Assembly (NCBI GenBank): GCA_964551475.1
Contig: CAZKCI010000027.1
Coordinates: 45,050 to 77,049, forward strand
DNA from: an uncultured bacterium
Lineage (GTDB): Bacteria; Auribacterota; Erginobacteria; Erginobacterales; CAZKCI01
DNA: 32,000 bases
Direction: 5' to 3'
Shown: positions 2,644 to 23,034 of the stretch, piece after piece
Position numbering within the stretch: the first letter of the stretch is position 1
How the letters are laid out: each line of letters starts with the position of its first letter
Notes under the pieces: model-generated
The model's input: the letters and a program-made list of their open reading frames with translations, nothing else
Databases searched by the model: none
What the model was told of the DNA's origin: nothing
Position numbers and translations under genes: made by a program

Positions 2644-2764
2644 GGAAACATGGAAATCTAGAAATATGGAAACAAGGAACCGGCTCTCGCCCCTCCGGAG
2701 TCCACTTGTTTCCATATTTCCAGATTTCCATGTTTCCCGATTGCCCCGTTCTCATATTTCCACT
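2644..2764. repeat. Inverted repeat (33-nt arms, 32/33 complementary, 28-nt loop) with an 8-nt tandem word array (TTTCCATA-type, 7 units)
   Basis: Arm 1 2644-2676 ggaaacatggaaatctagaaatatggaaacaag; arm 2 2705-2737 cttgtttccatatttccagatttccatgtttcc. Units from 2709: tttccata tttccaga tttccatg tttcccga ttgccccg ttctcata tttccact. Confidence 0.95.
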
Positions 2765-2771
2765 CAATAGC

Positions 2772-2800
2772 TTGACTTCTCCCTTCGTCTCGAACACAAT
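2772..2800 (+). promoter_or_regulatory. Putative sigma70-type promoter for the 2835 operon
   Basis: TTGACT (2772-2777), 17-nt spacer, CACAAT (2795-2800); AGGAG ribosome-binding site at 2823-2827 upstream of ATG 2835. Confidence 0.4.
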
Positions 2801-2834
2801 AGAGTCTACTATACCACCATTCAGGAGACTGATC

Positions 2835-3680
2835 ATGCCCACTGACAACAGCCCCGCGCCGGAAGCCCCTTCCCGCGCTCCCGATTCCGCCGCCGCGACC
2901 GGCCCGTCGCCGCGCGGGAAGATCATCATGGCGGCGGCCGGCGGCCTCCTGGTCGCCGCCGTCATCTTCCTGTTCGTGCAATATCGGACCACCTCCGCCA
3001 GCCTGGAGGCCGAGACCCAGTTGCGACGCTCGGCCGAGCTCCGGGTGAAGACTCAGGAGGATACGCTCGCCCAGCAGATCGGGCAGATCAACCGCCTGGA
3101 AAATCAGCTTCAGGATACCGAGACCAAAAACACCGAGTTTCAGTCCCGGGTCGGCGCCCTGGAGAAAGACCAGGCGATCCTGCAGAGCCGCCTGGAAAGC
3201 GCCGAGGATTCCCGAAAAAAGAGCGAAGAGCGCCTGGCCGAGGAGCAGACAACGGTGACCGAACTCCAGAAACGGACCGGCGAAGACCGGGTGAACCAGG
3301 CCCGGCTCCTCTCTCACATCGAGCGCCTGATGGGAGAGAAGGCGTCGCTCCAGGAGAAGCTGGCCGCGCTGGAAACGGGGAAGGCGGCGGGAGGGGCGGT
3401 GGCCCTACCCGAGGTGGTGGTGAGCGACGGAGAGCGCCCGCGCCGGGCCTTCGAGGGCGCGATCCTGGCGGTGAACAAGCGCTATGACTTCGTGGTTTTT
3501 AACCTCGGGGAGAAGGACGGGGTCAAGGCGGGGAGCCGCTGGGATGTCGTCGAAGAAGGTAAAAACATGGGCGAGGTGGTCGCGCGCCGGGTGCTTCCGG
3601 CGATGACGGTAGCCGACGTGGATCCCCGGCAAACGCGATCCGCCCTGAGAAAGAACGCCACCGTCGTCCCTCATGAATAG
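2835..3680 (+). CDS. Single-pass membrane coiled-coil protein with a C-terminal beta-rich 'GAILAVNKRYDFVVFNLGEKDGVKAGSRWDV' domain (similar in style to FlgT/MreC-type C-terminal domains); unknown function
   Basis: TM segment IIMAAAGGLLVAAVIFLFV followed by a long heptad-rich region; strong SD; overlaps the next gene by 8 nt. Confidence 0.8.
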   Translation: MPTDNSPAPEAPSRAPDSAAATGPSPRGKIIMAAAGGLLVAAVIFLFVQYRTTSASLEAETQLRRSAELRVKTQEDTLAQQIGQINRLENQLQDTETKNTEFQSRVGALEKDQAILQSRLESAEDSRKKSEERLAEEQTTVTELQKRTGEDRVNQARLLSHIERLMGEKASLQEKLAALETGKAAGGAVALPEVVVSDGERPRRAFEGAILAVNKRYDFVVFNLGEKDGVKAGSRWDVVEEGKNMGEVVARRVLPAMTVADVDPRQTRSALRKNATVVPHE

Positions 3681-8458: not shown

Positions 8459-8501
8459 GAATAGCCGTCCGCCCCGTTCCAGACGGGCCGGACGGCTATT
8501 C
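8459..8501 (-). terminator. Strong hairpin spanning the stop codon of the 8496-9953 gene (terminator-like, no clear U tract)
   Basis: gaatagccgtccg-c-cccgt-tccag-acggg-c-cggacggctattc: 13-bp perfect stem, one mismatch, 5-bp stem, 5-nt loop. Confidence 0.5.
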
Positions 8502-9953
8502 GACGGTGAGCTTCCCTACTTCCCAGTCCTGGATTTCGGGGTTGGTGTAGGGTTCCTTGATGAAGTCCTGCGGGTAGTTCGGCTGAATGATGTTGGTGAC
8601 TTTCTTATTTTCCACGTCCCAGTCCGCCATCTTGACGTAGTTCAGACCGCCGCCTCCGGTGTCGGCGATGATGTAGAGGCCGGCCCTGACCACGTAGTTC
8701 CCCGGAGGGGAGTCGGGGCTCAGCATCAGCGGGCCGGACTCGACCGCGATCTCCTGGTTCAGCGCCCAATTCCGGATCGGGGGATAGAGGGGGACGTCGA
8801 CGTCGATCCTCCCCGCCCGGTCGAACTCGCGGTAGACGTGGACGAACATCTTGTGGGTCGGGAAGAGGGGGGCGGTGAGCTTGTAGACCACCGAGAGCTT
8901 GAAGACATCGCCCCGTTTCACTCTGGTCGGGCCGTCCAGGCGGACAAAGGTGAGCGAGGGCTCTCCGCTGGGCCCGCCCCGGGAGCGCAGACGGAGCATG
9001 GAGAGATAGAAGCTGAAATCCTTTCCGGGCCGCGGAAGGAAAAGCTTGACCGAGCTGATGGCGGAGATGTTGATCGCCCCGCCCGTGTCCATCATGGGGA
9101 CGACCTCACGGACGGTCTCTCCGGGATTGAACCGGATTTCCTTCTTAAAAAGTCTTCCGCTCTTGTCGTTGATCTGGAGGATGACCCGCCCCCCCTCCCC
9201 CCCGGGAATGCCCTGGAGAGCGATCTCCAGGTTGTCATACAGGGACCAGTCGGCGGTACGGGGGCGGAGGGAGAAATAATTCTCGAGGGCGATCGCCGGG
9301 TATTCCCCTTCCGGTTTGATCGTGACCAGCGCCATGGGCGTGTCCCCTTCCTTGAAGAGCGAGATGGTGGCGCCTCGGGGCTCCCAAAAGATCAGGTCCT
9401 GTTCGCTGGCGAAGGTGACCAGGTCGAACTCGGTCGGCGCGGCGGCCGCTCCTTCCTTCTTCTCCGCCGCCTTGACCGAGATCTTCCCCAGGGCGAAGTT
9501 CTTGATCTCGGTGTTGGTGAGGGGTTCCCGGACAAAACGGACCCCTTTCTCGTCCGCGCTGATTTCCATCAGCCCCATCCGCACCTCGTAGTCTCCCGGC
9601 TCCAGATCGTAGGGGATGGACATCCCGAACGGGCCGACCTCGACCACCTGGCCGACCTCCCAGCGGTTGGTCGGGAAGCGGGGGAAGAAATCGGCGTTGA
9701 CACGGACCTCGTTCTGTCCGGCGGGGACGAAGTGCAGGAAAATCTTCTCGCTCTTGTCCACCGGCGCGGTGAGCTGGAAAAAAGCGGATCCGGTGAAAAA
9801 ATCCCCCTGGGAGGCCTCTGTCTGCATCTGGAAGCTGACGAAGGAAACCCGGGGGGAACCCTGGCGAAGAATGGTTTCAGCGGGGGCGGGCGAGGCGAGG
9901 AGGAGCGCCGCGAGAGACAGAAGCGCAGTCAACCATCCGGATGCAGTCTTCAT
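8496..9953 (-). CDS. Secreted/periplasmic protein with two beta-sandwich-like modules flanking a middle domain; unknown function
   Basis: Start MKTASGWLTALLSLAALLLASPAPAET (signal peptide). Modules end in 'REPLTNTEIKNFALGKISV' and 'KEPYTNPEIQDWEVGKLTV'. Confidence 0.75.
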   Translation of the reverse strand: MKTASGWLTALLSLAALLLASPAPAETILRQGSPRVSFVSFQMQTEASQGDFFTGSAFFQLTAPVDKSEKIFLHFVPAGQNEVRVNADFFPRFPTNRWEVGQVVEVGPFGMSIPYDLEPGDYEVRMGLMEISADEKGVRFVREPLTNTEIKNFALGKISVKAAEKKEGAAAAPTEFDLVTFASEQDLIFWEPRGATISLFKEGDTPMALVTIKPEGEYPAIALENYFSLRPRTADWSLYDNLEIALQGIPGGEGGRVILQINDKSGRLFKKEIRFNPGETVREVVPMMDTGGAINISAISSVKLFLPRPGKDFSFYLSMLRLRSRGGPSGEPSLTFVRLDGPTRVKRGDVFKLSVVYKLTAPLFPTHKMFVHVYREFDRAGRIDVDVPLYPPIRNWALNQEIAVESGPLMLSPDSPPGNYVVRAGLYIIADTGGGGLNYVKMADWDVENKKVTNIIQPNYPQDFIKEPYTNPEIQDWEVGKLTVE

Positions 9954-9981
9954 GATGTCAGCCCCCAGCATGAGGAATCGC

Positions 9982-10114
9982 GTCGATGGGCAAGGGCCAG
10001 GTTATTGGTCTGGTTCATGGGCAAAGTCATGGGGCGCGCAACGTAACAGCCCTGCCATCACTACCGACATTGCCCAGGCCCGAACCTTTGACCTTACCCT
10101 TACCCATTTTACCT
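9982..10114. repeat. Interspersed inverted-repeat element, family E copy 1
   Basis: Left arm 9982-10026 gtcgatgggcaagggccaggttattggtctggttcatgggcaaag; right part from 10079 cccgaacctttgaccttacccttacccattttacc. Left arm matches copy 2 at about 38/45 and copy 3 at 34/45. Confidence 0.8.
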
Positions 10115-11150
10115 ATTTTTTAGGGCCCGTCACCTGGATTTTGCTCACCCGGAACTCCTTGAGCTCCGGGTTCTCATACGGCTGAAAATAGTACTGGAAA
10201 CGGCCGGCGACCTCCAGGGGATGGGCGAGGATCGCTTCCAGGTCGTAGGTACCCGGGGGAAGGTCGGCCGGGAGGGCGACCTCCACCGGGCCGACCTTGA
10301 CCAGCTTGCCCTCCGGCCACTGGCTGGTCGGGAAGGGGGGCGAGACCTCGGCCAGCGTGCGGACATTGCCCTCCCGGCTCAAACGGAGAAGCAGGGTGTG
10401 ATCGGATCCCAGGGGACGGCGGGCGATGAAGTAGAACGATCCCGCAAATTTCTCGCCGGGCGAGGCGGAGGCGGGGAATTCCAGACCCATGAAACGGACC
10501 AGCGCCGTCGACGGCGCTTCCTGGGCGGAAGAGGGAAAACCGATATCGGTGTAATAAAGGACCGTCTCCGAGGAGGGGTCCCAGAGGAAGAAGTTCAGGT
10601 AGCCGATCTTGCTGGCGTCGATCCTCTCCGCGATCTGGCGGACGGGGATCTCGATCCGGCGGGACTGGCCGGGGGCGATCTTCTCCGCCCTCTGGAAGCT
10701 CTGGCCGCCGACGTCCTTGACCTTGACCTTGAGATCGACGTCGAAGGACTGGGGGTTGAAAACCGTGAAGAACAGGGAGGCGGCATCCCTCCAGTCCATC
10801 GTCGGCATGGTGTCGTCGGTCCAGAGGAATCCGGGCGACTGGGAAGGGTAGTAGGTCACCCGGGCCCACTTCTCCGGCGAGTCGAAGGGGCTGTTGACGA
10901 TCTCGAAGCGGGTGCCGGCGGTCACCCAGATCTCGGCGTCTTCGGGTCGGGAGAAATCGCAGCGGAAACCGGCCATGTTCTTCGCCTTGACTCCGGAGAC
11001 GATCGCCACCGGCTCGCGCTTGATCTTTTTCAGCCAGGAGGGCAGCTGGGCGATCCGGTCCTTGAGGAAGAGGCCCAGGACCAGGAGCACCAGGACGACC
11101 CAGGCCGCGGTCATGACCCGGTTGACCCATGTTTTTCTTATGGTTTTCAC
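10113..11150 (-). CDS. Single-pass membrane protein sharing the C-terminal module of the 8496-9953 protein; unknown function
   Basis: N-terminal TM (MTAAWVVLVLLVLGLFL); C-terminal 'KLVKVGPVEVALPADLPPGTYDLEA...PYENPELKEFRVSKIQV' aligns with 'QVVEVGPFGMSIPYDLEPGDYEVRM...PLTNTEIKNFALGKISV' of the neighbour. Confidence 0.75.
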   Translation of the reverse strand: MKTIRKTWVNRVMTAAWVVLVLLVLGLFLKDRIAQLPSWLKKIKREPVAIVSGVKAKNMAGFRCDFSRPEDAEIWVTAGTRFEIVNSPFDSPEKWARVTYYPSQSPGFLWTDDTMPTMDWRDAASLFFTVFNPQSFDVDLKVKVKDVGGQSFQRAEKIAPGQSRRIEIPVRQIAERIDASKIGYLNFFLWDPSSETVLYYTDIGFPSSAQEAPSTALVRFMGLEFPASASPGEKFAGSFYFIARRPLGSDHTLLLRLSREGNVRTLAEVSPPFPTSQWPEGKLVKVGPVEVALPADLPPGTYDLEAILAHPLEVAGRFQYYFQPYENPELKEFRVSKIQVTGPKK

Positions 11151-11221: not shown

Positions 11222-11249
11222 TTGACACGCTTACCTCCGATACTATACA
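11222..11249 (+). promoter_or_regulatory. Putative sigma70-type promoter for the motor-like operon
   Basis: TTGACA (11222-11227), 16-nt spacer, TATACA (11244-11249); GGAAGGAG ribosome-binding region upstream of ATG 11298. Confidence 0.6.
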
Positions 11250-11297
11250 TTGGCGTGAAGAATCCGGCGCCGGAGGCGCAGGAAGGAGACGTTCACG

Positions 11298-12215
11298 ATG
11301 CGCTTGGCTTTCCTGACCATACTCATCCTCGCGACACTTCCGGGCCAAACCCGGGCGCAACAGCCTGACTCCCCGGAGATGGCCGATCGCACCGACCTGG
11401 AGTCCGTCTGGAAGCGCTCCGGACGGACGACCCGGGTCATCGACTACCCCTTCAGCCCCCGCCCCTGGATCTCCAGCGGTCCCGACCTTCGGGACTGGGG
11501 AAACCAGGGCTACATCTTCATCAACCCGCGGATCGAAGACCGGGCGCGGACCCTTCCCGCCCCCACCCCGGAAGAGGGGCTGACCGCCGTGGAAACGGTC
11601 GAAGCGGAGGAGATCGCCCGCATGCTGGAGGAGGAAAAAGGACGGCGGGGGGCCCTGGAGGCGGAGATCAAAGCGGCGCAGGAGGAGCTCCAGGCGGCCC
11701 GGGAGAAAACCGAAGATCAGTCGGCCAAGATCTTGATTCTCGAAAACCAGATCGAGGAGATGGAAAAGCAGAAGGGCGCCGTGACGGCTGAATGGACAGG
11801 GGAGACCGGCGGAACCGGCGGACCGCCAGCCGCCGGACTTATCGTGGAGAAGACGGACACCTACCCGGTCGGTCAGGACCAGAGCCTGTGGTCGATTGCC
11901 GGGCGGGCCGAGGTCTACGGGAACCCCTTCAAATGGCTCCTTCTCTACCACGCCAACCGCGACCAGATCTTCGACCCCGACCTGATCTATCCCGGCATGA
12001 TCCTGATGGTTCCCCGCTATAAGGACCTGGAGGTTTTCCCGCCCCCGCCGGCGGAAGAGAAAGCGGCGGCGACGGAGCCGGCAGAGGAAGGAGCGGCGGC
12101 GGCGACGCCCGCTTTGACGGAGGAAACCCCTGTTGCCAAGCCCCCGGCGACTTCTCCGGCGAACGCCACCCAGGCTCCAGAAATGCCGGCGCCAAATCCG
12201 TCACCTCTGTCCTGA
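11298..12215 (+). CDS. Secreted coiled-coil protein with C-terminal LysM-like peptidoglycan-binding domain
   Basis: Signal peptide MRLAFLTILILATLPGQTRAQ; coiled coil 'EAEEIARMLEEEKGRRGALEAEIKAAQEEL...'; LysM-like 'YPVGQDQSLWSIAGRAEVYGNPFKWLLLYHANRDQIFDPDLIYPGMILMVPR'. Confidence 0.85.
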   Translation: MRLAFLTILILATLPGQTRAQQPDSPEMADRTDLESVWKRSGRTTRVIDYPFSPRPWISSGPDLRDWGNQGYIFINPRIEDRARTLPAPTPEEGLTAVETVEAEEIARMLEEEKGRRGALEAEIKAAQEELQAAREKTEDQSAKILILENQIEEMEKQKGAVTAEWTGETGGTGGPPAAGLIVEKTDTYPVGQDQSLWSIAGRAEVYGNPFKWLLLYHANRDQIFDPDLIYPGMILMVPRYKDLEVFPPPPAEEKAAATEPAEEGAAAATPALTEETPVAKPPATSPANATQAPEMPAPNPSPLS

Positions 12216-12258: not shown

Positions 12259-14358
12259 ATGAGCGCAGTGATCCGATCCCGCATAACCTTTCTGATCCTG
12301 GCCGCCGCCGGCTTCCTCTACGCTCCCCTTCTCCCCTCCCAGCAGAGAGCGGACGAATCCCAGGTGGAGACGGCGCTCCAGCAAAAGCTCCAGTCGATGC
12401 TGGACGTCCTGGTCGGCCCCCAGCGCACAATCGTCGACGTCGACGTCACCCTCCGGGACACCGCCACGGCGAACGAGGTGAGTAACCGCGTCCGCGCAAT
12501 GACATCTCTCTCCGGCGTCCGCACCAGCGTGAAAAAGGAGGAGGCGGGGGCCGCCGACGGAGACCTCCTGGAACCCCTGATCTCGAGCCGCCATATCTCG
12601 GTCCAGGCCGACGAAAAGCTCGCCGCCGAGCTGATCGAGAAGATCAAAACCGAGGTCCCCAAGTGGGCCCGGATCAATCCCGGCCGCGGCGACACCTTCA
12701 AGCTGGAGCTCATTCCCTGGCGGGAGATCGTCTCCCCCCCCTCCGCCACCCAGCAGAACTACCTCCTCTACTCCATTTTGGCCATGGTCGTCCTGCTCAT
12801 CCTGATCGCCGCCATCTACTTCCCCCTGAGAAAGCTCAAGATGCCGGAGACAACCCCCCCGGGAGCAATCCCCGGAACACCGGCCGCACCCCGAGGACCG
12901 GGCGAAGAGGCCGCCGGAGGCCCCGGTGAAGAAGAAAAGCGCAAACAGCGCACCGAAGAACTCGATGAATTGAAGCAGGTCTTCGCCGGGGCGGCGAACA
13001 TCGACCAGAGCGGCGTCCTGGAGGAGATCAGGAACATGATCGAGAAGGGCCTCTCCCGCACGCCGGCCCAGATCGACTCAATCCTGGAGGAGATCAAGGA
13101 CATCCTCTCCAAGACCCCCCAGGAGTCGGACACACTCCTGACCGAGATCCGCGACACGCTGGCCGACATGCTGGATGCCCAGAAGAAGCTCACGGCGATG
13201 GGCGGGCTGGGCGCGGGAACCGGGACCGGCGCGGCGGCCCCGGGCGCCGCGCCCGCCGCCGCGCCGGCCGCCCGGGCGGAAGCCGCGGGGCGGGCCGCCG
13301 GGGACGGCGGCTTCGGCCCCGAGGTGGTCGAGGTCCTGGGCAACATCGAGGACCTGATGGCCCAGCAGTTGGAGAAGACACCGGAGAGCGGCATCCTGGA
13401 CGAGCCCTTCAAGTACCTGAAGACCCTTCCGCCCGAAGACGTCGTCATGCTGGTCGAGGACGAGGAGCCGAAGCTCGCGGCCGCCGTCCTCTCCCAGATC
13501 GACTCCAAATCCGCCGCCGACGTGATGGCGGGGATCGAGGAGGAAAAGCAGTTCGAGATCGCCCGGGCGATGACGGGCCTGGTCGAGACGGAGGACCTGG
13601 CCGAGGAGATCAAGGACTTCCTGGAACGCAAGCTCAAGATCGTCCGCCTGCACAAGGACTACATCCCGGTCCTCGGTTACCGGGTCCTGGCCGACATTCT
13701 GTCCTCCAGCCGCTACGCGGTGGCCCGGGTCCTCCTGGACAAGATGGAGTCCAAGAACCCGGCCATGGCCGCCGAGGTGCGCAAACGGATGTTCCTCTTC
13801 GAGGACGTGGTCACCCTGACCGACAAGGACCTCGAGGCCCTGATCCACAACCTCCCCCGGGAGATGGTCTCCTGCGCCCTGGCCGACTCCCCGGAGGAGA
13901 TCCGGAACAAGTTCCTCCAGAACATGACCGAGCGCGCCCGCCAGATGATCCAGGAGGACATGGAGACGCTGAAGAAGGTCCAGCTCGAGAAGGACGGCAA
14001 GGAGATGAACTTCAACGAGGCCATGCTCGCCCTCGATCAGAACGTGATCGAGGAGATCTTCCGGACGGTGGACCGCAACGTGGTCAAGATGGCCCTGCGC
14101 GGGGGCTCCGACGAGGTGCGGGAGAAGTTCTTCGCGGGTCTGACCGAGCGGGCGGTGGTGATGCTCAAGGAGGACCTGGAGGTGATGGGCCAGATCACGC
14201 GCAAGCGCGCCGACGAGGCTCAGGAAGAGGTGATGAACGTCCTCCGCAAGCTCTCCAGCAAGACGCTGGAGGCCCAGCACGAGATCATCGCCACCATCCG
14301 CAAGCTCGAGAAGGAAGGGCAGATCAGCGTCGAGCGCTTTCAGGAAGAGATGGTTTAG
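12259..14358 (+). CDS. FliF-FliG-like fusion: signal peptide, FliF C-terminal/RBM3-like periplasmic domain, one TM, charged linker, FliG middle domain, duplicated FliG C-terminal motif
   Basis: 'LQQKLQSMLDVLVGPQRTIVDVDVTLRD...IEKIKTEVPKWARINPGRGDTFKLELIPW', TM 'NYLLYSILAMVVLLILIAAIYFPL'; FliG-like 'LPPEDVVMLVEDEEPKLAAAVLSQIDSKSAADVMAGI', 'EEVRKRMFLFEDVVTL'-type motif (here AAEVRKRMFLFEDVVTLTDKDL), 'EEIRNKFLQNMTERARQMIQEDME' and 'DEVREKFFAGLTERAVVMLKEDLE'. Confidence 0.85.
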   Translation: MSAVIRSRITFLILAAAGFLYAPLLPSQQRADESQVETALQQKLQSMLDVLVGPQRTIVDVDVTLRDTATANEVSNRVRAMTSLSGVRTSVKKEEAGAADGDLLEPLISSRHISVQADEKLAAELIEKIKTEVPKWARINPGRGDTFKLELIPWREIVSPPSATQQNYLLYSILAMVVLLILIAAIYFPLRKLKMPETTPPGAIPGTPAAPRGPGEEAAGGPGEEEKRKQRTEELDELKQVFAGAANIDQSGVLEEIRNMIEKGLSRTPAQIDSILEEIKDILSKTPQESDTLLTEIRDTLADMLDAQKKLTAMGGLGAGTGTGAAAPGAAPAAAPAARAEAAGRAAGDGGFGPEVVEVLGNIEDLMAQQLEKTPESGILDEPFKYLKTLPPEDVVMLVEDEEPKLAAAVLSQIDSKSAADVMAGIEEEKQFEIARAMTGLVETEDLAEEIKDFLERKLKIVRLHKDYIPVLGYRVLADILSSSRYAVARVLLDKMESKNPAMAAEVRKRMFLFEDVVTLTDKDLEALIHNLPREMVSCALADSPEEIRNKFLQNMTERARQMIQEDMETLKKVQLEKDGKEMNFNEAMLALDQNVIEEIFRTVDRNVVKMALRGGSDEVREKFFAGLTERAVVMLKEDLEVMGQITRKRADEAQEEVMNVLRKLSSKTLEAQHEIIATIRKLEKEGQISVERFQEEMV

Positions 14359-14569: not shown

Positions 14570-15325
14570 ATGCGCGCATCCACGATCATCGGCCTCATCG
14601 CAGCTTTTATCATCGTTTTCCTGTCCATTTTTCTCCGGGGGGGGATGCCGATGGTCATGCTTTTCGTCGACATCCCTTCCATGATCCTGACCGGCGGCTG
14701 CACCGTCGCCTGCATGTTCATCAACTTCACGCCCCGCCAGCTCTGGGATGGACTGCTCTCCTTCCGCTATTGCCTGGTGAGCAAGATGGCCACCCCAGCG
14801 GACGTGATCGAGGTCCTGGTAGAAATGGCGGTCAAGGCCCGCAAGGAGGGCTTCATGGCCCTGCGCGAGCTCTCCACCAAGGGGCGCTACCCCCTCCTCG
14901 ACATCGGCGTGGACCTGGTCGCCGACGGGACCGACCCCGAGGTGACCCGGGGCATCCTGGAGACGGTCTCCGACTACATCAACGTCAAGATCTCGGGCGA
15001 AGAGCGTTTCTGGCGAGACATGTCGATCTACGCCCCCTTCTTCGGGATGCTGGGGACGCTGGTGGGACTGATCATGCTTCTGAAGACACTGAAGGACCCG
15101 GAGACGATCGCCCCCAACATGTCGCTCGCCCTGGTCACCACGTTCTATGGCTGCGTCATCGCCGGCATCATTTGCATGCCGGTCGCGGGCAAGATCCACG
15201 TCTACAACACCAACCTGGCCTTGAGCCGCGAGATCATCATCGAAGGGATCGCGTCCATCCAGGCCGGCGACAACTCCCAGATCGTCCGCGAGAAGCTCCA
15301 GGCCTATCTCGCGGGGCTACAGTAA
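14570..15325 (+). CDS. motA: MotA-family ion-channel stator protein
   Basis: 'LFVDIPSMILTGGCTVACMFI', 'REGFMALRELSTKGRYPLLDIGVDLVADGTDPEVTRGILE'-type cytoplasmic domain, 'YAPFFGMLGTLVGLIMLLKTLKDPETIAPNMSLALVTTFYGCVIAGIICMPVAGKI'. Confidence 0.93.
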   Translation: MRASTIIGLIAAFIIVFLSIFLRGGMPMVMLFVDIPSMILTGGCTVACMFINFTPRQLWDGLLSFRYCLVSKMATPADVIEVLVEMAVKARKEGFMALRELSTKGRYPLLDIGVDLVADGTDPEVTRGILETVSDYINVKISGEERFWRDMSIYAPFFGMLGTLVGLIMLLKTLKDPETIAPNMSLALVTTFYGCVIAGIICMPVAGKIHVYNTNLALSREIIIEGIASIQAGDNSQIVREKLQAYLAGLQ

Positions 15326-15423: not shown

Positions 15424-16245
15424 ATGCCCGTAGAGGACAAGCCGGTTCCGCGCGAACGCAAGCGGGTCAACCCCGACCAGGAGGGCGGCGGGCTCTCCTC
15501 CTCCTGGCCGCCCGTCTGGATGACCACCTACTCCGACATGATCACCAACCTGATGACCTTCTTCGTGCTCCTCTACGCCCTGACCATGGTGAGGATCCCC
15601 TTCGATCTGGTCAAGTTCGCTGAACCGGGAGACAAGCGCATTGTGCCCACCGGCAGCGAGGATTTTTTCTACACCGATGAAACCCAGTCAGCAGATGATA
15701 TCCAGGTTCTGGAGCAGATCGAACGGATGACGGCGGAAGACCGGCTGGCCTTGAGCGAGATGGCGACGTTCCAGGAGCAGGTGGAAGAACTGAAGCGGAC
15801 ACTGGAAAAGGGGAGGCTCGCCGACGGCGTAAAGGTGTTGATCACCGCCGAAGACGTGGTCATTGTCCCTTCCGCGCCCCTGATTTTCGCGGAAGGCTCG
15901 GACCGGATCAAAGAGTCCTTTTTCCCCATCCTCGACCGTCTGGCGGGGCTGATCAAGGATACCAAAGCCTCCGTCCGTATCGAGGGGCACACCGACGACA
16001 CGCCGATCGACCCCCTCCACCGGAACCGTTTCCCCAGCAACTACGAGCTCTCCGCCGCCCGGGCGATCGCCGTCGGCCGCTATTTTATCGAAAAGCACGC
16101 CGTGCCTCCCGAGCGGATCGCCGTGGCCGGCTACGGCCCCCTCCTCCCCCGCTTCCTGGCCAGCGAGCCCGAGAAGCGGGCGCTCAACCGCCGGGTCGAG
16201 TTCCATATTTTCATATCTTCGGCGACCCTCTCGAAAGAGGGCTGA
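15424..16245 (+). CDS. motB: MotB-family stator protein (copy 1) with OmpA-like peptidoglycan-binding domain
   Basis: 'WPPVWMTTYSDMITNLMTFFVLLYAL' (channel Asp) and 'VRIEGHTDDTPIDPLHRNRFPSNYELSAARAIAVGRYFIEKHAVPPERIAVAGYGP...NRRVEFHI'. Confidence 0.9.
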   Translation: MPVEDKPVPRERKRVNPDQEGGGLSSSWPPVWMTTYSDMITNLMTFFVLLYALTMVRIPFDLVKFAEPGDKRIVPTGSEDFFYTDETQSADDIQVLEQIERMTAEDRLALSEMATFQEQVEELKRTLEKGRLADGVKVLITAEDVVIVPSAPLIFAEGSDRIKESFFPILDRLAGLIKDTKASVRIEGHTDDTPIDPLHRNRFPSNYELSAARAIAVGRYFIEKHAVPPERIAVAGYGPLLPRFLASEPEKRALNRRVEFHIFISSATLSKEG

Positions 16246-16250
16246 ACGCG

Positions 16251-17078
16251 ATGGGATCAAAAAGAAAAAGGATGGCCCAGGTGGAGGACAAGGGGCTGTC
16301 CGGCATGTGGCCCCCGGTCTGGATGACCACCTACTCCGACATGGTCACCAACGTGATGGTCTTTTTCGTCATCCTCTCCGCCATGCTCGTCCTCAAGATC
16401 GACGTGACCTTGATCGCCGGGCCAAAGATGCGCGGCGACAAAGAAAGGCCGACCAAGGTGAAAAAGCTAACCGCGGAACAGAAGACCATGGTCGACAATT
16501 TCCGCGCTCTGGAAGAACAGCAGATGCGGGAGGCTGCCTCGGTCACCAAGATGCAGCAGATCGGCGAGGAGATCGCCCAGTATATCCTGAAAGCCAATCT
16601 TCAGAAATTCGTCGTGGTGGAGACGACCAAGTGGAAGGTCAAGGTGGTCCCGCTCACCCCCTTCCTTTTCTCCCCCGGTCGGGCGGTCATCCGCCCGGAG
16701 TCCCGTGACTTCCTCGACCGCCTGGCCAAGTTCTTCAGCATCAACCCCGGCCAGATCCGGATCGCCGGCCATACCGATAACCTGCCCATCTACTCCGCCG
16801 AGTATCGCTCGAACTGGGAGCTCTCCGCCGCCCGGGCGGCCGCCATCATGAGGTATCTGGTGGAAGTCCACGGGCTCGATCCGAAGAGGTTCGTCGCGGT
16901 CGGCTGTGGGCCCTACCAACCGTTGGCGGACAACTCCACGCCGGAAGGGCGCAAGGAGAACCGCCGGGTGGAGATCGAGATCACTCAGGAACCCGAACCG
17001 GCGGGAAAGGCCGCAAAAGGCGGCATGGATGCGGCGGGGACCGCGGACGGCGGGGGGGCGGTCTCTCCGGCGAATTGA
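16251..17078 (+). CDS. motB: MotB-family stator protein (copy 2)
   Basis: 'MWPPVWMTTYSDMVTNVMVFFVILSAMLV' and 'IRIAGHTDNLPIYSAEYRSNWELSAARAAAIMRYLVEVHGLDPKRFVAVGCGPYQP...ENRRVEIEI'. Confidence 0.9.
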   Translation: MGSKRKRMAQVEDKGLSGMWPPVWMTTYSDMVTNVMVFFVILSAMLVLKIDVTLIAGPKMRGDKERPTKVKKLTAEQKTMVDNFRALEEQQMREAASVTKMQQIGEEIAQYILKANLQKFVVVETTKWKVKVVPLTPFLFSPGRAVIRPESRDFLDRLAKFFSINPGQIRIAGHTDNLPIYSAEYRSNWELSAARAAAIMRYLVEVHGLDPKRFVAVGCGPYQPLADNSTPEGRKENRRVEIEITQEPEPAGKAAKGGMDAAGTADGGGAVSPAN

Positions 17079-17323
17079 ACGACGGCCGGGGGGCGCGTCC
17101 AGGACGCTTCGGCCGCCGCGTGGCTTTTGCTGATCTCCAGCGCGCGCCGGATCGACTTCCCGATCTGCCAACCCGCCAGCGCCCCGAGTAGAACGCTCCC
17201 GGCGATCACTCCCATCCAGATCTTAGCCCCGATCCGCATCCTTTCTCGGGGAAAGTGGGAGCGGGTGGAGATCCGTACGCGAACCTTCTGACGCCGGGGC
17301 GGCGCCGAGTCGCTTCCCGTCAT
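16985..17323 (-). CDS. Small single-TM hypothetical protein, translationally coupled to the radical SAM gene and antisense-overlapping the motB copy 2 end
   Basis: ATG at 17323 forms an ATGA overlap with the stop codon at 17320-17322 of the upstream gene; TM 'KIWMGVIAGSVLLGALAGWQIG'. Confidence 0.5.
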   Translation of the reverse strand: MTGSDSAPPRRQKVRVRISTRSHFPRERMRIGAKIWMGVIAGSVLLGALAGWQIGKSIRRALEISKSHAAAEASWTRPPAVVQFAGETAPPPSAVPAASMPPFAAFPAGSGS

Positions 17324-18438
17324 AACCCCAGAGCCTTCCTGGCCTTGGCCAGCTTGATCCGGGCGTACTCGAAGAGGATGAGCGGATACATCCGCGGGTT
17401 GAACAGGATGTTCAGCGTGAGGAAGCACTCGTAGGTGCAGAAGCATTTGCTCTCCCGGATCGTCCGCCGGGCGGCGCGGGCCTTCTCCCCGAACCAGATC
17501 TTCTTGAAGTCATAGCCTTCCTTCCGTACGTTCCCGAGCTTCAGATCGGCGTGGAGCTCGCAAGGCAGCACGTCCCCGTTGGCGAAGAGGGCCGCCCCCA
17601 GCGTCCCCCCCTGGCAGGGCAGGATCATCCGGTTCTCCCGGATCAGGCGGGCGATGATCCGGTGCCGGATGATCCTCTTGGCGTTGATCAGGTCGGCCAG
17701 GGGGAAACGGGTGTAGCCGGTCAGCTCGCGCTGGCGCAACCCCTTCTCCATCGCCCGGGCATAACGCTCGTAGTTGTCGATGTTGAAGAACTTCGCCGAC
17801 GGCTCCATCGGCTTGCCCCGGGTGAGGAGGGTGAAGAGGGTGTCGGCCCCGAGAACCCGGGTGAAGTGGTCGTACATCTCGAGAAGTTTCGCGTCGTTGT
17901 AGGACGAGACGGTGGTCTCGATGGTGGAGGTGAAACGGGGGTATTCCTGCTCGAGCTTCTTCAGCTCGCGGAAGGTGGCGGTCGCCTTTTCGAAGAGGCC
18001 GGGGAAACCCCTGATCTCGTCGTGGTCGGCGCCGATCCCGTCCAGGGACACGTCCACCATCAGGTCGAGGCCGGGGCAGGACTTCAGGATAGACCGGGTC
18101 GTCTCCACCACCCGCTCGGTCAGCGACCCGTTGGTGGGAATGCCCACGTTCTGGACGCGGTTGTTGCGGTGGAAGATCTTGACGATCTCGGCGAGATCTT
18201 TGCGGAGAAACGGCTCGCCCCCGGTGGGAAGGAGGAAAAGGAAATCGTCCATGGAGCGGGAGACCTTCTCGATTTCTTCGATCGTGAGCTGGTCCTGGCC
18301 GGGGTCGATCCCGGCCAGCAGGCAGTGCCGGCAGCGGGCGTTGCAGGCGGAGGTGACGAAAAAGACCAGGTAGAGGGGCGAGGCGTTACCCTGGAAAAGA
18401 ACGCGGGGCGCGTATTTGAGATAGTGGAGAGATTTCAT
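17320..18438 (-). CDS. Radical SAM/SPASM domain protein
   Basis: 'FFVTSACNARCRHCLLAG' (CxxxCxxC), 'PTGGEPFLRKDL', C-terminal cysteines 'LPCQGG...VLPCELH...CFCTYEC'. Confidence 0.92.
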   Translation of the reverse strand: MKSLHYLKYAPRVLFQGNASPLYLVFFVTSACNARCRHCLLAGIDPGQDQLTIEEIEKVSRSMDDFLFLLPTGGEPFLRKDLAEIVKIFHRNNRVQNVGIPTNGSLTERVVETTRSILKSCPGLDLMVDVSLDGIGADHDEIRGFPGLFEKATATFRELKKLEQEYPRFTSTIETTVSSYNDAKLLEMYDHFTRVLGADTLFTLLTRGKPMEPSAKFFNIDNYERYARAMEKGLRQRELTGYTRFPLADLINAKRIIRHRIIARLIRENRMILPCQGGTLGAALFANGDVLPCELHADLKLGNVRKEGYDFKKIWFGEKARAARRTIRESKCFCTYECFLTLNILFNPRMYPLILFEYARIKLAKARKALGL

Positions 18439-21851: not shown

Positions 21852-21977
21852 GTCGATGGGTCAAGGTTAGGAAATGGGTCTGGTAGATGGGCAAGGTCCA
21901 AGGTGCGTCGGGCCGGCCGGCTCGAACCTAACCCTTACCTCTAGACCAAACCCACTTCTTAACCCTCACCCATCAAC
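21852..21977. repeat. Interspersed inverted-repeat element, family E copy 3
   Basis: Left arm 21852-21896 gtcgatgggtcaaggttaggaaatgggtctggtagatgggcaagg; right arm 21933-21977; 34/45 identical after reverse-complementing. Confidence 0.85.
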
Positions 21978-23034
21978 CAGCTTTTTCCCTGACTACATCC
22001 TTCTCTTTAACATATCCGGCCGCGCAGGCGGAGCAAACGGCCTTCTTCCCCGAGAAGGCCAGCTTGACGCCGCAGCGGCAGATCCAGCCCTGAATCCGGG
22101 CCGGGTTGCCGTAGACCAGGGCGAAGTCGGGGAGATCGCGGGTGACCACCGATCCGGCGCCCACGAAGGCGTAGCGGCCGATGGTGTGGCCGCAGACCAC
22201 GGTGGCGTTGGCGCCGATCGAGGCTCCGCGCTTGACCAGCGTCCGGCGATACTCGTTCTTGCGGGAGACCTCGCAGCGGGGGTTGATCACGTTGGTGAAA
22301 ACCATGGAGGGACCGCAGAAGACGAAGTCCTCCAGCTCCACGTCGTCGTAGACCGAGACGTTGTTCTGGATCTTCACGCCGTTCCCGATCTTCACCCGGC
22401 TTCCCACGTTCACGTTCTGTCCCAGGCTGCAGTTCTCGCCGATCCGCGCCCCGCCCAGGACATGGCTGAAATGCCAGATCTTCGTCCCCTTGCCGATCAC
22501 CGCGCCGGCGTCGACGTAGCTCGATTCATGGACAAAATAATCAGGACCGGCAGGAGAAGAAGAAACAGGACCGGCGGGAGAGGCAGGATGGGCAGGAGCG
22601 GCAGGAGAAACACGAGAAGGTCTTTTCACTATAATTTCAGGTCCTTTCTTGGGCTCGGGTTGAATCAAGGTCTGGCGATAGCGCTTGAGGAGATAAATGG
22701 TTCTTCCACAGAGAGAATCGAGATCCTGGTAAATCTCCGAGGAGAAAAGCTTGTCCTCAATACAATCTTCCAGATCACCGAGAAGTTCTTCCGCTGATCC
22801 CTCGGAAATCTCCAGGAATCTCGCCAATTCCAGCCGGGATTGTCTCCGATAGCCTTCTTGGATATTTTGTTTGATTGAACGGGCGGCGCTGTTCATCTGT
22901 GAAATGCGCCTCATCTCGGAGTGCGGAAATGTTTTTGTAATCCCGAATATCTTTCTCCGTAGTTCCGACGCCGCCTGCCAGAAATGCCATGTACGGTAGC
23001 TCTGGGTCTTGTAATCTTTCTTGGGGCTCTCCAT
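21973..23034 (-). CDS. Fusion: N-terminal four-helix-bundle (S23/IVP-like) domain + low-complexity linker + WbpD-like left-handed beta-helix N-acetyltransferase + C-terminal zinc-ribbon-like CxC...CxxC
   Basis: N-term '[79 protein letters not shown]'; linker '[22 protein letters not shown]'; then '[89 protein letters not shown]'; C-term '[23 protein letters not shown]'. Confidence 0.88.

Follow-up and report, generated by a model that had tools for sequence, protein, structure and literature searches.

The 32,000-nucleotide stretch of DNA analysed here (hereafter the window), which corresponds to positions 45,050 to 77,049 of the forward strand of contig CAZKCI010000027.1 (GenBank assembly GCA_964551475.1) from an uncultured bacterium of the Auribacterota, carries a gene whose product combines parts of two flagellar proteins in a single polypeptide. 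In this protein of 699 amino acids (aa), encoded at 12259..14358 on the plus strand (+), a periplasmic domain resembling the third ring-building motif (RBM3) of the MS-ring protein FliF is followed by a transmembrane (TM) helix, a cytoplasmic linker, and the middle and C-terminal domains of FliG, the last of which is partly duplicated, an arrangement that can be written as FliF(RBM3)-TM-linker-FliG(M, C, C'). Judged from its sequence, the fusion joins the ring-building core of FliF with the torque-receiving core of FliG. The presence of its own stator genes, its location within a polysaccharide locus, and the lack of other flagellar genes in the window suggest a stripped-down flagellar-type motor that serves something other than swimming. 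It is rather probable that the fusion is the subunit of a minimal rotor, in which an RBM3 ring builder, a TM helix, a linker, FliG_M, and a duplicated FliG_C operate with dedicated stators, and the chance that it represents a new class of non-flagellar rotary machine is substantial.

The gene was delimited through its open reading frame (ORF), Pfam matches, alignment of homologues, independent gene calls, and the ratio of nonsynonymous to synonymous substitution rates (dN/dS). It begins with an ATG at 12259, preceded 5 nucleotides (nt) upstream by the sequence GGGAGA, and ends with a stop codon at 14356-14358; independent gene callers, which leave an upstream in-frame TTG at 12133 unused, again produced a 699-aa protein on two public contigs. 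The GC content by codon position (0.66/0.39/0.89) is typical for genuine genes within the window. A word-indexed search of 5.8 billion proteins identified 27 full-length homologues with 50-100% identity, whose named sources are metagenome-assembled genomes (MAGs) of a 'PVC group bacterium', 'Candidatus Auribacterota' and 'Candidatus Erginobacter occultus', and which can be aligned from end to end with many invariant columns; public annotations of these relatives read 'FliG' or 'FliG C-terminal domain-containing protein'. Comparison with the nearest relative (from L011, 89% aa identity) yields a dN/dS of 0.16 overall, the RBM3, linker, and FliG parts giving 0.24, 0.08, and 0.15, respectively, with values for relatives below about 60% identity being saturated and disregarded. 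The fusion gene is thus genuine, and every one of its segments is under purifying selection. A preliminary description, prepared from the DNA letters, had already reported a mini-FliF fused to FliG at exactly this position, and the observation is confirmed by the family of 27 homologues and by the location of both peptides that it quoted, LQQKLQSMLDVLVGPQRTIVDVDVTL (residues 40-65) and INPGRGDTFKLELIPW (residues 139-154).

The two hydrophobic segments announced in that description, an N-terminal signal or TM segment and a single TM helix, are found at residues 9-27 and 168-186. The first of these lies within residues 1-27 (12259..12339, +), with a hydropathy peak at 9-27 and a helix at 3-20 in an AlphaFold2 (AF2) model, and could be either a signal peptide or an uncleaved TM1 like that of FliF; residue Q28 is invariant in the family, and a candidate A/S-x-S/A cleavage site directly precedes it. 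The second, at residues 165-190 (12751..12828, +), is the equivalent of FliF TM2, with which it aligns, its hydropathy reaching 2.79 at 168-186 and its AF2 helix spanning residues 163-194. Whichever N-terminal option applies, the predicted topology places residues 28-163 in the periplasm and everything beyond residue 190 in the cytoplasm.

The periplasmic domain (residues 28-163; 12340..12747, +) is supported as a homolog of FliF RBM3 (PF08345) by the agreement of profile searches, sequence searches of solved structures, and structural comparison. A profile built from the first 195 residues of 22 family members, employed with HMMER against 1.84 billion representative proteins, produced 60 matches at E<=1e-3, of which 38 contain PF08345 and 15 are canonical FliF proteins (PF01514+PF08345), matched inside the PF08345/RBM3 region and TM2 as two pieces that lie on either side of the beta-collar (P0040, E=6.5e-8; P0042, E=2.6e-7). 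The RBM3 signatures seen in these alignments are LExxLQxxLDxxxGPxxxxVxV, followed by IxxLSVAVxVD...I...V....G.D..RGDxLxV..xxF. In sequence searches of the Protein Data Bank (PDB), the narrow profile A2 gave no relevant match, and FliF was reached only with the diverse profile A3, which recognizes the solved Salmonella FliF (6scn) with E=6.5e-5 over FliF residues 370-473, which correspond to RBM3b and TM2, and FliF chain 9yh6 with E=1.3e-4 over query residues 31-158. Pfam itself is silent over the first 230 residues of the window protein, with no direct match to PF08345.

The AF2 model of this region (pLDDT 69) comprises a helix at 28-52, strands at 57-64 and 110-118, a helix at 123-136, and a strand at 146-152 that carries an invariant RGD, that is, an alpha-beta-(insert)-beta-alpha-beta fold with RBM topology, split at the site where FliF bears its beta-collar. 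The insertion at this position (65-109) contains a helix (68-82) and a disordered stretch (84-106), both of low confidence, and is retained in short form, with about 43 aa in comparison to about 85 aa in FliF P0042. The preliminary description stood to fall if the periplasmic segment lacked structural similarity to RBM or FliF domains; such similarity was found in a Foldseek search of the PDB, where the 18 top-ranking entries are without exception RBM3/collar structures of FliF (3.8e-4 to 1.9e-2, probability 1.00, TM-score 0.4-0.56). The SctJ-family rings MxiJ, PrgK, and EscJ rank below FliF in the same list, and SpoIIIAG is absent from the top 50 PDB matches. The TM-scores are modest; a pair of membrane helices and a disordered loop form part of the 195-residue model, and the collar differs. 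PF01514, which covers RBM1 and RBM2, was not found in the fusion by Pfam, and a local search with the RBM1-2 segment of FliF, which detects it in canonical FliF, found it in none of the fusions; since the periplasmic part amounts to only 136 residues, there is no room for these motifs. The suggestion that only the last periplasmic repeat of FliF is present therefore stands. Two matches of the N-terminal profile, P0083 (338 aa) and P0066 (323 aa), consist of RBM3 and TM2 with no FliG part, the former displaying a FliF-like tail at its C-terminal end (DLVERDADRVAQQVRAWM); these may represent either mini-FliF proteins that are unfused and RBM3-only or gene calls that were cut short.

The membrane helix is followed by a cytoplasmic linker of 190 aa (residues 191-380; 12829..13398, +), delimited through the family alignment, which contains both stretches rich in Pro, Gly, and Ala and amphipathic helices that are conserved (LEEIRxxL repeats). 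Pfam gives no match to this linker, and neither FliG_N nor the C-terminal FliF tail that binds FliG_N is recognizable in it; FliG_N (PF14842) has no Pfam match anywhere in the fusion. Matches to FliG_N in some distant members were rejected as cross-matches that fall on the FliG_M ARM repeat (residues 377-428 in P0031). With the FliF tail and FliG_N both missing, the covalent linker would take the place of the non-covalent FliF-FliG joint, in agreement with the earlier proposal that the usual FliF-FliG_N contact is bypassed.

The FliG-like domains noticed at the outset can now be described as FliG_M and a partly duplicated FliG_C. The middle domain (ARM_M, residues 381-460; 13399..13638, +) is recognized by Pfam FliG_M (PF14841) at 392-460 with E=1.5e-10, and FliG_C (PF01706) is matched in two stretches with E=3e-39. 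Alignment with the FliG_MC structure of Thermotoga maritima (1lkv; overall E=7.6e-31) falls into two pieces, the first of which (fusion residues 382-527) runs from the start of FliG_M through the MFxFED motif of ARM_C, and the second of which (590-666) covers the C-terminal torque domain. The 62 residues between them (528-589; 13840-14025) are unmatched and correspond to a partial tandem duplication of FliG_C. As judged from the Pfam match, the 1lkv gap, and conservation, the first FliG_C stretch (residues 495-577; 13741..13989, +) holds the ARM_C motif, here MFLFED (511-516), and an inserted copy of the torque helix, TERARQMIQEDME, and the second (residues 590-670; 14026..14268, +), defined by the second alignment piece, is a complete torque domain with the motif TERAVVMLKEDLE. 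Each subunit consequently carries two torque-helix motifs, with charges conserved in both. In the complete copy, R614, R631, E638, D639, and R650 are the equivalents of E. coli K264, R281, D288, D289, and R297; the last four positions are identical in all 27 family members, and at position 614 an R is found in 26 of them and a K in 1. The inserted copy retains K/R559, E566, and D567. P0031 and P0033 share this duplication, and only one copy is seen in P0029, P0030, P0034, and P0035. The EHPQR motif for FliM binding has a degenerate form (E402-E403-P404-K405...R436, with R in 23/27), which fits the absence of FliM and FliN genes. The NCBIfam FliG model TIGR00207 aligns over profile positions 104-304 of 338, with a score of 158 that is below the cut-off of 226.7. 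Since correspondence to FliF is found only for RBM3 and TM2, and to FliG only for the M and C domains, the fusion is the ortholog of neither protein.

The fusion is the second gene of an apparent operon that encodes, in this order, a LysM protein, the fusion, FlbD, MotA, MotB1, and MotB2, with gaps of 43, 1, 9, 98, and 5 nt. On balance, the fusion, FlbD, the PomA-like MotA, and the two MotB proteins are probably co-transcribed, with the tight packing of the genes counting in support. A scan for promoters and terminators in the window was not above chance, and no RNA elements were found; a promoter-like site, TTGACA-18-TACATT (11222..11251, +), one site where 0.8 would be expected by chance, is suggestive only through its position upstream of the LysM gene, within the divergent intergenic region. 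This first gene (11298..12215, +) encodes a secreted protein of 305 aa composed of a signal peptide, a coiled coil, a LysM peptidoglycan-binding domain (NCBIfam, residues 185-240), and a Pro/Ala-rich tail. The gene in the equivalent upstream position is also a LysM gene in the related loci L005, L008, and L010, and in L022 it encodes a PorP_SprF+TPR+LysM protein whose LysM domain aligns with that of the window (E=1e-6).

Downstream of the fusion, and starting 1 nt past its stop codon, lies a gene for a 66-aa protein of the FlbD/SwrD family (PF06289; 14360..14560, +; E=4.8e-27 over residues 1-57), directly upstream of motA, and the order flbD-motA-motB is kept in L003-L005, L008, L010, and L024. 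In B. subtilis, the generation of torque is impaired when SwrD is lost, and MotA has been predicted, without validation, to be its partner (PMC13232269). The MotA protein of the window (14570..15325, +) is a stator A subunit of the MotA/PomA type, with 251 aa, 4 TM helices, a Pfam MotA_ExbB domain, and full-length similarity to Vibrio PomA (8brd, E=5e-39); its best NCBIfam models are PomA and MotP, below their equivalog cut-offs, and it keeps the equivalents of R88/K89 as well as both mechanistically important prolines. It is followed by two MotB paralogues of 273 aa (15424..16245, +) and 275 aa (16251..17078, +), both matching Pfam MotB_plug and OmpA, and both displaying a plug, a TM helix with the channel aspartate in a YSDM motif, and an OmpA-like peptidoglycan-binding domain. 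Two MotB genes after a single MotA are also present in L003, L004, L005, L010, and L022, and a single MotB is found in L006, L024, and L025; conservation of the pair suggests a heterodimeric B axle. The possibility that these genes belong to Zorya (ZorAB) or another defence system was discarded, as PADLOC detected no ZorA or defence match and the similarity to ZorB is only that which is generic to MotB/OmpA proteins.

The genes that flank the operon in the window encode the exosortase EpsH, a priming sugar transferase, GT2 and GT4 glycosyltransferases, two polysaccharide deacetylases, a Wzx-type flippase, and sugar-modifying enzymes, and on public contigs that carry the identical fusion gene EpsI adjoins EpsH; the surroundings form a polysaccharide locus of the Wzx/Wzy/exosortase type. 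Divergent from the motor operon are two genes on the minus strand (-) for proteins with modules that resemble carbohydrate-binding modules (CBMs). The nearer (10113..11150, -) encodes a TM-anchored protein with two CBM-like beta-sandwich domains (AF2 pLDDT 82), whose best Foldseek matches are the CBM of xanthanase 6fhj (2.6e-7), an exo-agarase, a CBM22 tandem, and a laminarin CBM. The second (8496..9971, -) encodes a secreted 491-aa paralogue with about three modules, without a Pfam or NCBIfam match, which is related to the first in two regions by BLASTP (E=6e-17 and 1e-12). Neither protein of the pair belongs to an assigned family, and each module ends with Y/LxNPE(I/L)xxFxxxK(I/L)xV. The TM-anchored protein adjoins the operon also in L003, L004, L005, L008, and L010, and the pair is found beside it in Auribacterota, one Omnitrophota genome, and two further metagenome contigs.

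Comparison of related loci indicates that the fusion is one member of a wide family whose members always bring their own MotAB genes and lie outside flagellar loci. Among the 60 representative matches to the N-terminal profile, counted as clusters at 50% identity, about 30 have the architecture RBM3-TM-FliG_MC, with lengths of 434-667 aa and no RBM1/2, and a search for loci with profile A2 reached 11 genomes, all of them uncultured MAGs. Gene order is kept over about 22 kb in L003 and L004 at only 52-56% identity, and one of the more remote fusions (35-37% identity) comes from Ca. Omnitrophota; with a related fusion annotated in Ca. Electryonea clarkiae, the family spans Auribacterota, Omnitrophota, and Electryoneota. 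In L005 and L010 (about 35% identity), an 11-gene block is conserved in the order Bac_transf, deacetylase, Metallophos, two CBM-like, LysM, fusion, FlbD, MotA, MotB, MotB, most of which is also present in the shorter contig L008; L010 additionally carries Wza, Wzc, and Wzy, and L005 (Omnitrophota) has a histidine kinase and a GGDEF response regulator beside the operon. In L024 the fusion operon lies directly downstream of Wza-Wzc, and in both L024 (10001-18699) and L025 (10001-19196) the series fusion-(FlbD)-MotA-MotB is followed by an FG-GAP/CHU_C protein of 1300-1550 aa and then by a PorP_SprF/TPR outer-membrane protein; in L022, the PorP_SprF+TPR+LysM protein mentioned above is immediately upstream of the fusion. 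A further variant, in L006/L007 (P0057, 10001-12511; also P0084), bears a cytoplasmic HisKA+HATPase_c kinase N-terminal to TM-RBM3-TM-FliG_MC; in L006/L007 the genes before it encode a surface protein of 2773 aa and a UPF0164/TPR protein, and those after it a 252-aa coiled-coil protein of no known family, MotA, and MotB.

No gene for export, rod, hook, filament, or FliM/FliN components, and no flagellar gene outside the operon, is present in the 32 kb of the window, and genes for the export apparatus, rod, hook, filament, and FliM/N were likewise not found in twelve related loci (labels L001-L010, L022-L025). Williams et al. 2022 (PMC9324843) report Auribacterota MAGs from Ace Lake that are 88-100% complete and without flagella, including Ca. 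Erginobacter occultus, and a flagellated Ca. Auribacter fodinae; the same paper reports complete flagellar genes for Ca. Electryonea clarkiae. Ca. Erginobacter occultus carries a homologue of the fusion (P0016/L020). With a carrier reported to lack flagella and another reported to possess them, the module would be found in at least one lineage that has no flagellum, and elsewhere it may be present together with one.

The mechanism that these elements suggest begins with the oligomerization of RBM3 domains, which would close into a ring at the inner membrane's periplasmic side and thereby place a ring of FliG_MC at its cytoplasmic side, so that the equivalents of the MS-ring and the upper C-ring would derive from a single polypeptide. 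FliF builds rings of about 33-34 subunits; its isolated RBM3 assembles rings of native symmetry (PMC8786727), and it is because such isolated domains and engineered FliF-FliG fusions make rings that the same capacity can be proposed here. MotA5B2 units, possibly with a MotB1/MotB2 heterodimer, would be held to the peptidoglycan through their OmpA-like domains, and ion flow through these stators would push the conserved charged torque helices, causing the ring to rotate or, at minimum, to bear torque; such coupling is expected because the torque-helix charges are invariant and the set of stator features is complete. Export gate, rod, hook, filament, and FliM/FliN all being absent, the assembly would not be a flagellum. 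Its output most likely concerns a cell-surface polymer. In the lineage of the window, this could be an exopolysaccharide of the Wzx/Wzy/exosortase type, with the LysM and CBM-like membrane proteins as periplasmic partners, and in other lineages it could be a giant CHU_C adhesin associated with a PorP/SprF-TPR outer-membrane protein. The motor's substrate is the weakest step of this scheme, and the candidates are those to which the recurring LysM, PorP/SprF-TPR, CBM-like, Wza/Wzc/Wzx/Wzy, and CHU_C partners point, namely a surface polysaccharide or adhesin. More tentatively, and with somewhat less than an even chance in our estimate, the RBM3-FliG fusion, FlbD, and MotAB would form the core of an unrecognised class of non-flagellar rotary machine in which a self-contained MS/C-ring made of one protein, spun by flagellar-type stators, drives the movement, extrusion, or organisation of surface polymers via LysM or PorP/SprF-TPR partners; these polymers would be Wzx/Wzy exopolysaccharide in Auribacterota and Omnitrophota and giant CHU_C adhesins elsewhere. 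If true, it would represent a third kind of gliding or secretion motor, having arisen by exaptation of the flagellar motor or being a relative of a pre-flagellar ancestor.

A number of points weigh against this proposal. Ring assembly, rotation, and the substrate moved are all inferred from sequence and model data, and the link with polysaccharides and adhesins is provided by gene neighbourhood and is correlative only. The model of the N-terminal region is only moderately confident, given its pLDDT and TM-scores to FliF, and the shortened beta-collar implies that the geometry of the oligomer may differ from that of FliF. On the stator side, the MotA equivalent of E. coli E98/PomA E96 is R/K in this clade, with an acidic residue adjacent, so that the canonical charge pairing is altered. 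The negative result for flagellar genes covers the window and the related loci, and a flagellar connection may exist in some lineages with related fusions, such as Ca. Electryonea clarkiae.

This last point leads to the notion that the fusion could be an accessory or alternative rotor of a conventional flagellum, either co-assembled with FliF and FliG or forming a second motor whose remaining parts are encoded elsewhere. RBM3, FliG_MC, FlbD, the PomA-like MotA, and MotB are all of flagellar type, and both a member of the same phylum (Ca. Auribacter fodinae) and a carrier of a related fusion (Ca. Electryonea clarkiae) are reported as flagellated; however, the fusion lacks RBM1/RBM2, which house the export gate, as well as FliG_N, its EHPQR motif is degenerate, it never lies beside flagellar genes in the twelve loci, it has dedicated stator genes, and one of its carriers is Ca. 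Erginobacter occultus, for which a near-complete MAG is reported to lack flagella, all of which make an accessory role quite unlikely. A sensing or regulatory role for the assembly is a serious alternative, to which a low probability can be assigned: FliG could recruit MotAB to a non-rotating scaffold or mechanosensor, acting as a sensor of proton-motive force or load, or as a regulated ion leak, that signals to polysaccharide synthesis. The histidine-kinase fusions P0057 and P0084, and the histidine kinase and GGDEF regulator beside the L005 operon, are in line with such a role, and a precedent for cross-talk between exopolysaccharide (EPS) and FliG is found in B. subtilis EpsE, which is encoded in the EPS operon and acts as a clutch on FliG. 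The torque charges, stator plug, channel Asp, and peptidoglycan anchor are nevertheless fully conserved, as needed for force generation, and sensing and working are compatible with each other.

Two further explanations have very little in their favour. That the fusion is a functionless, decaying remnant of a lost flagellar cluster could be imagined from the loss of domains and from the fact that most carriers are non-flagellated kin of flagellated lineages, yet this is strongly disfavoured and very improbable in view of dN/dS values of 0.08-0.24 in all segments, the 27 intact full-length homologues with invariant functional residues, the operon and neighbourhood kept to about 35% identity in three candidate phyla, and the existence of about 30 clusters with the same architecture. 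Hardly more credible is a Chlamydia-type FliF-FliG fusion at the service of non-flagellar type III secretion: the FliF-FliG(M) fusion of Chlamydiaceae, which belong to the PVC group, is thought to contact injectisome parts (PMC4768692), but no type III secretion genes are present in the window or the related loci, and the fusion described here has a full FliG_C as well as MotAB and FlbD genes, which would have no role in an injectisome.

The proposed minimal rotor can be compared with several known systems. With canonical FliF and FliG it shares homologous RBM3, TM2, FliG_M, and FliG_C regions, the MFxFED motif and the torque charges, and its FlbD, MotA, and MotB are of flagellar type; unlike them, it is a single polypeptide without RBM1/RBM2, FliF tail, and FliG_N, its collar has about half the length, its torque-helix segment is duplicated, its EHPQR motif is degenerate, and no export, axial, or FliM/N genes lie nearby. 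The closest natural parallel is in the Chlamydiaceae, non-flagellated PVC bacteria with few flagellar genes (FliF, FliL, FlhA), where a protein of about 330 aa likewise links a shortened FliF periplasmic region, located between hydrophobic segments, to a FliG domain (Bergeron 2016, PMC4768692). As published, the chlamydial fusion has an RBM2-like motif, one further RBM, and only a FliG_M-like region, and no MotAB is present, in contrast to the RBM3 only, the FliG_M with duplicated FliG_C, and the dedicated FlbD-MotA-MotB of the window. It is the sole published natural precedent found, with a different domain set and no stator. Covalent FliF-FliG links have also been engineered: two papers describe a Vibrio fusion that forms MS-rings, which have been purified and solved (PMC10941966, PMC11481574), and Salmonella fusions are cited in PMC4768692. 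Both halves of the window protein match the Vibrio fusion (PDB 8z4d). These constructs join full-length partners inside a complete flagellum, whereas the window fusion is natural, truncated in both partners at the junction, and located outside any flagellar locus.

Among systems that work in a similar manner, GldLM of the machinery for type IX secretion (the T9SS) and gliding in Bacteroidota and AglRQS-Glt/Nfs of Myxococcus are 5:2 ion motors of the inner membrane that act on a surface adhesin or polysaccharide. The functional analogies are with the movement of SprB driven by GldLM and with the handling of spore-coat polysaccharide driven by Agl-Nfs. No homology to GldL/GldM or AglRQS is involved; the stator here is MotAB of the flagellar type, and its target would be the torque domain of FliG on a putative RBM3 ring. 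The FG-GAP/CHU_C and PorP_SprF/TPR pairs of L024/L025 resemble the cargo and anchor of Bacteroidota gliding and T9SS, albeit with a flagellar-type motor instead; PMC9143113 and PMC12635249 describe PorP/SprF-type outer-membrane proteins as anchors of CHU_C cargo (type B C-terminal domain) in Bacteroidota. The RBM rings formed by SctJ (injectisome) and SpoIIIAG (sporulation) have in common with the periplasmic domain the alpha-beta-beta-alpha-beta ring-building fold, but Foldseek scores for SctJ are much weaker than those for FliF RBM3, and sequence profiles match FliF only.

In the papers searched, neither RBM3-FliG_MC fusions with dedicated MotAB nor, for any non-flagellar system, MotAB acting on a FliG torque domain on an RBM3 ring were described. 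To our knowledge, every FliG-MotAB pair studied to date is part of a flagellum. The window protein and its relatives form a natural, conserved, and widespread family in which FliG torque domains are welded to a FliF domain that is able to build a ring alone, with dedicated stators and a consistent location amid genes for polysaccharides or adhesins. If the assembly rotates, no simpler flagellar-type motor is known, its rotor consisting of one protein, and it would provide a minimal system for structural and single-molecule torque work, as well as an example of a flagellar rotor/stator module reused for another envelope function. The family also bears on how MS-ring, C-ring, and stator were joined in flagellar evolution, and the duplicated torque helix and the histidine-kinase-fused variants offer further experimental handles.

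Several other genes of the window deserve a brief mention. At 17320-18438 (-), between MotB2 and the first GT4 gene, lies a radical SAM/SPASM gene that is present in L001/L002 and not there in L003/L004. The protein encoded at 21973-23034 (-) carries a PF05635 domain, the four-helix bundle associated with 23S rRNA intervening sequences, N-terminal to a hexapeptide-repeat acyltransferase, and its orthologues in L003/L004 (202-209 aa) are without the PF05635 domain. Upstream of the priming sugar transferase, at 2706-3680 (+), is the gene for a TM-anchored coiled-coil protein with weak DUF4407/SMC-like matches, which has conserved counterparts in L003, L004, L005, and L010 and could serve the EPS pathway as an accessory for chain length or export.

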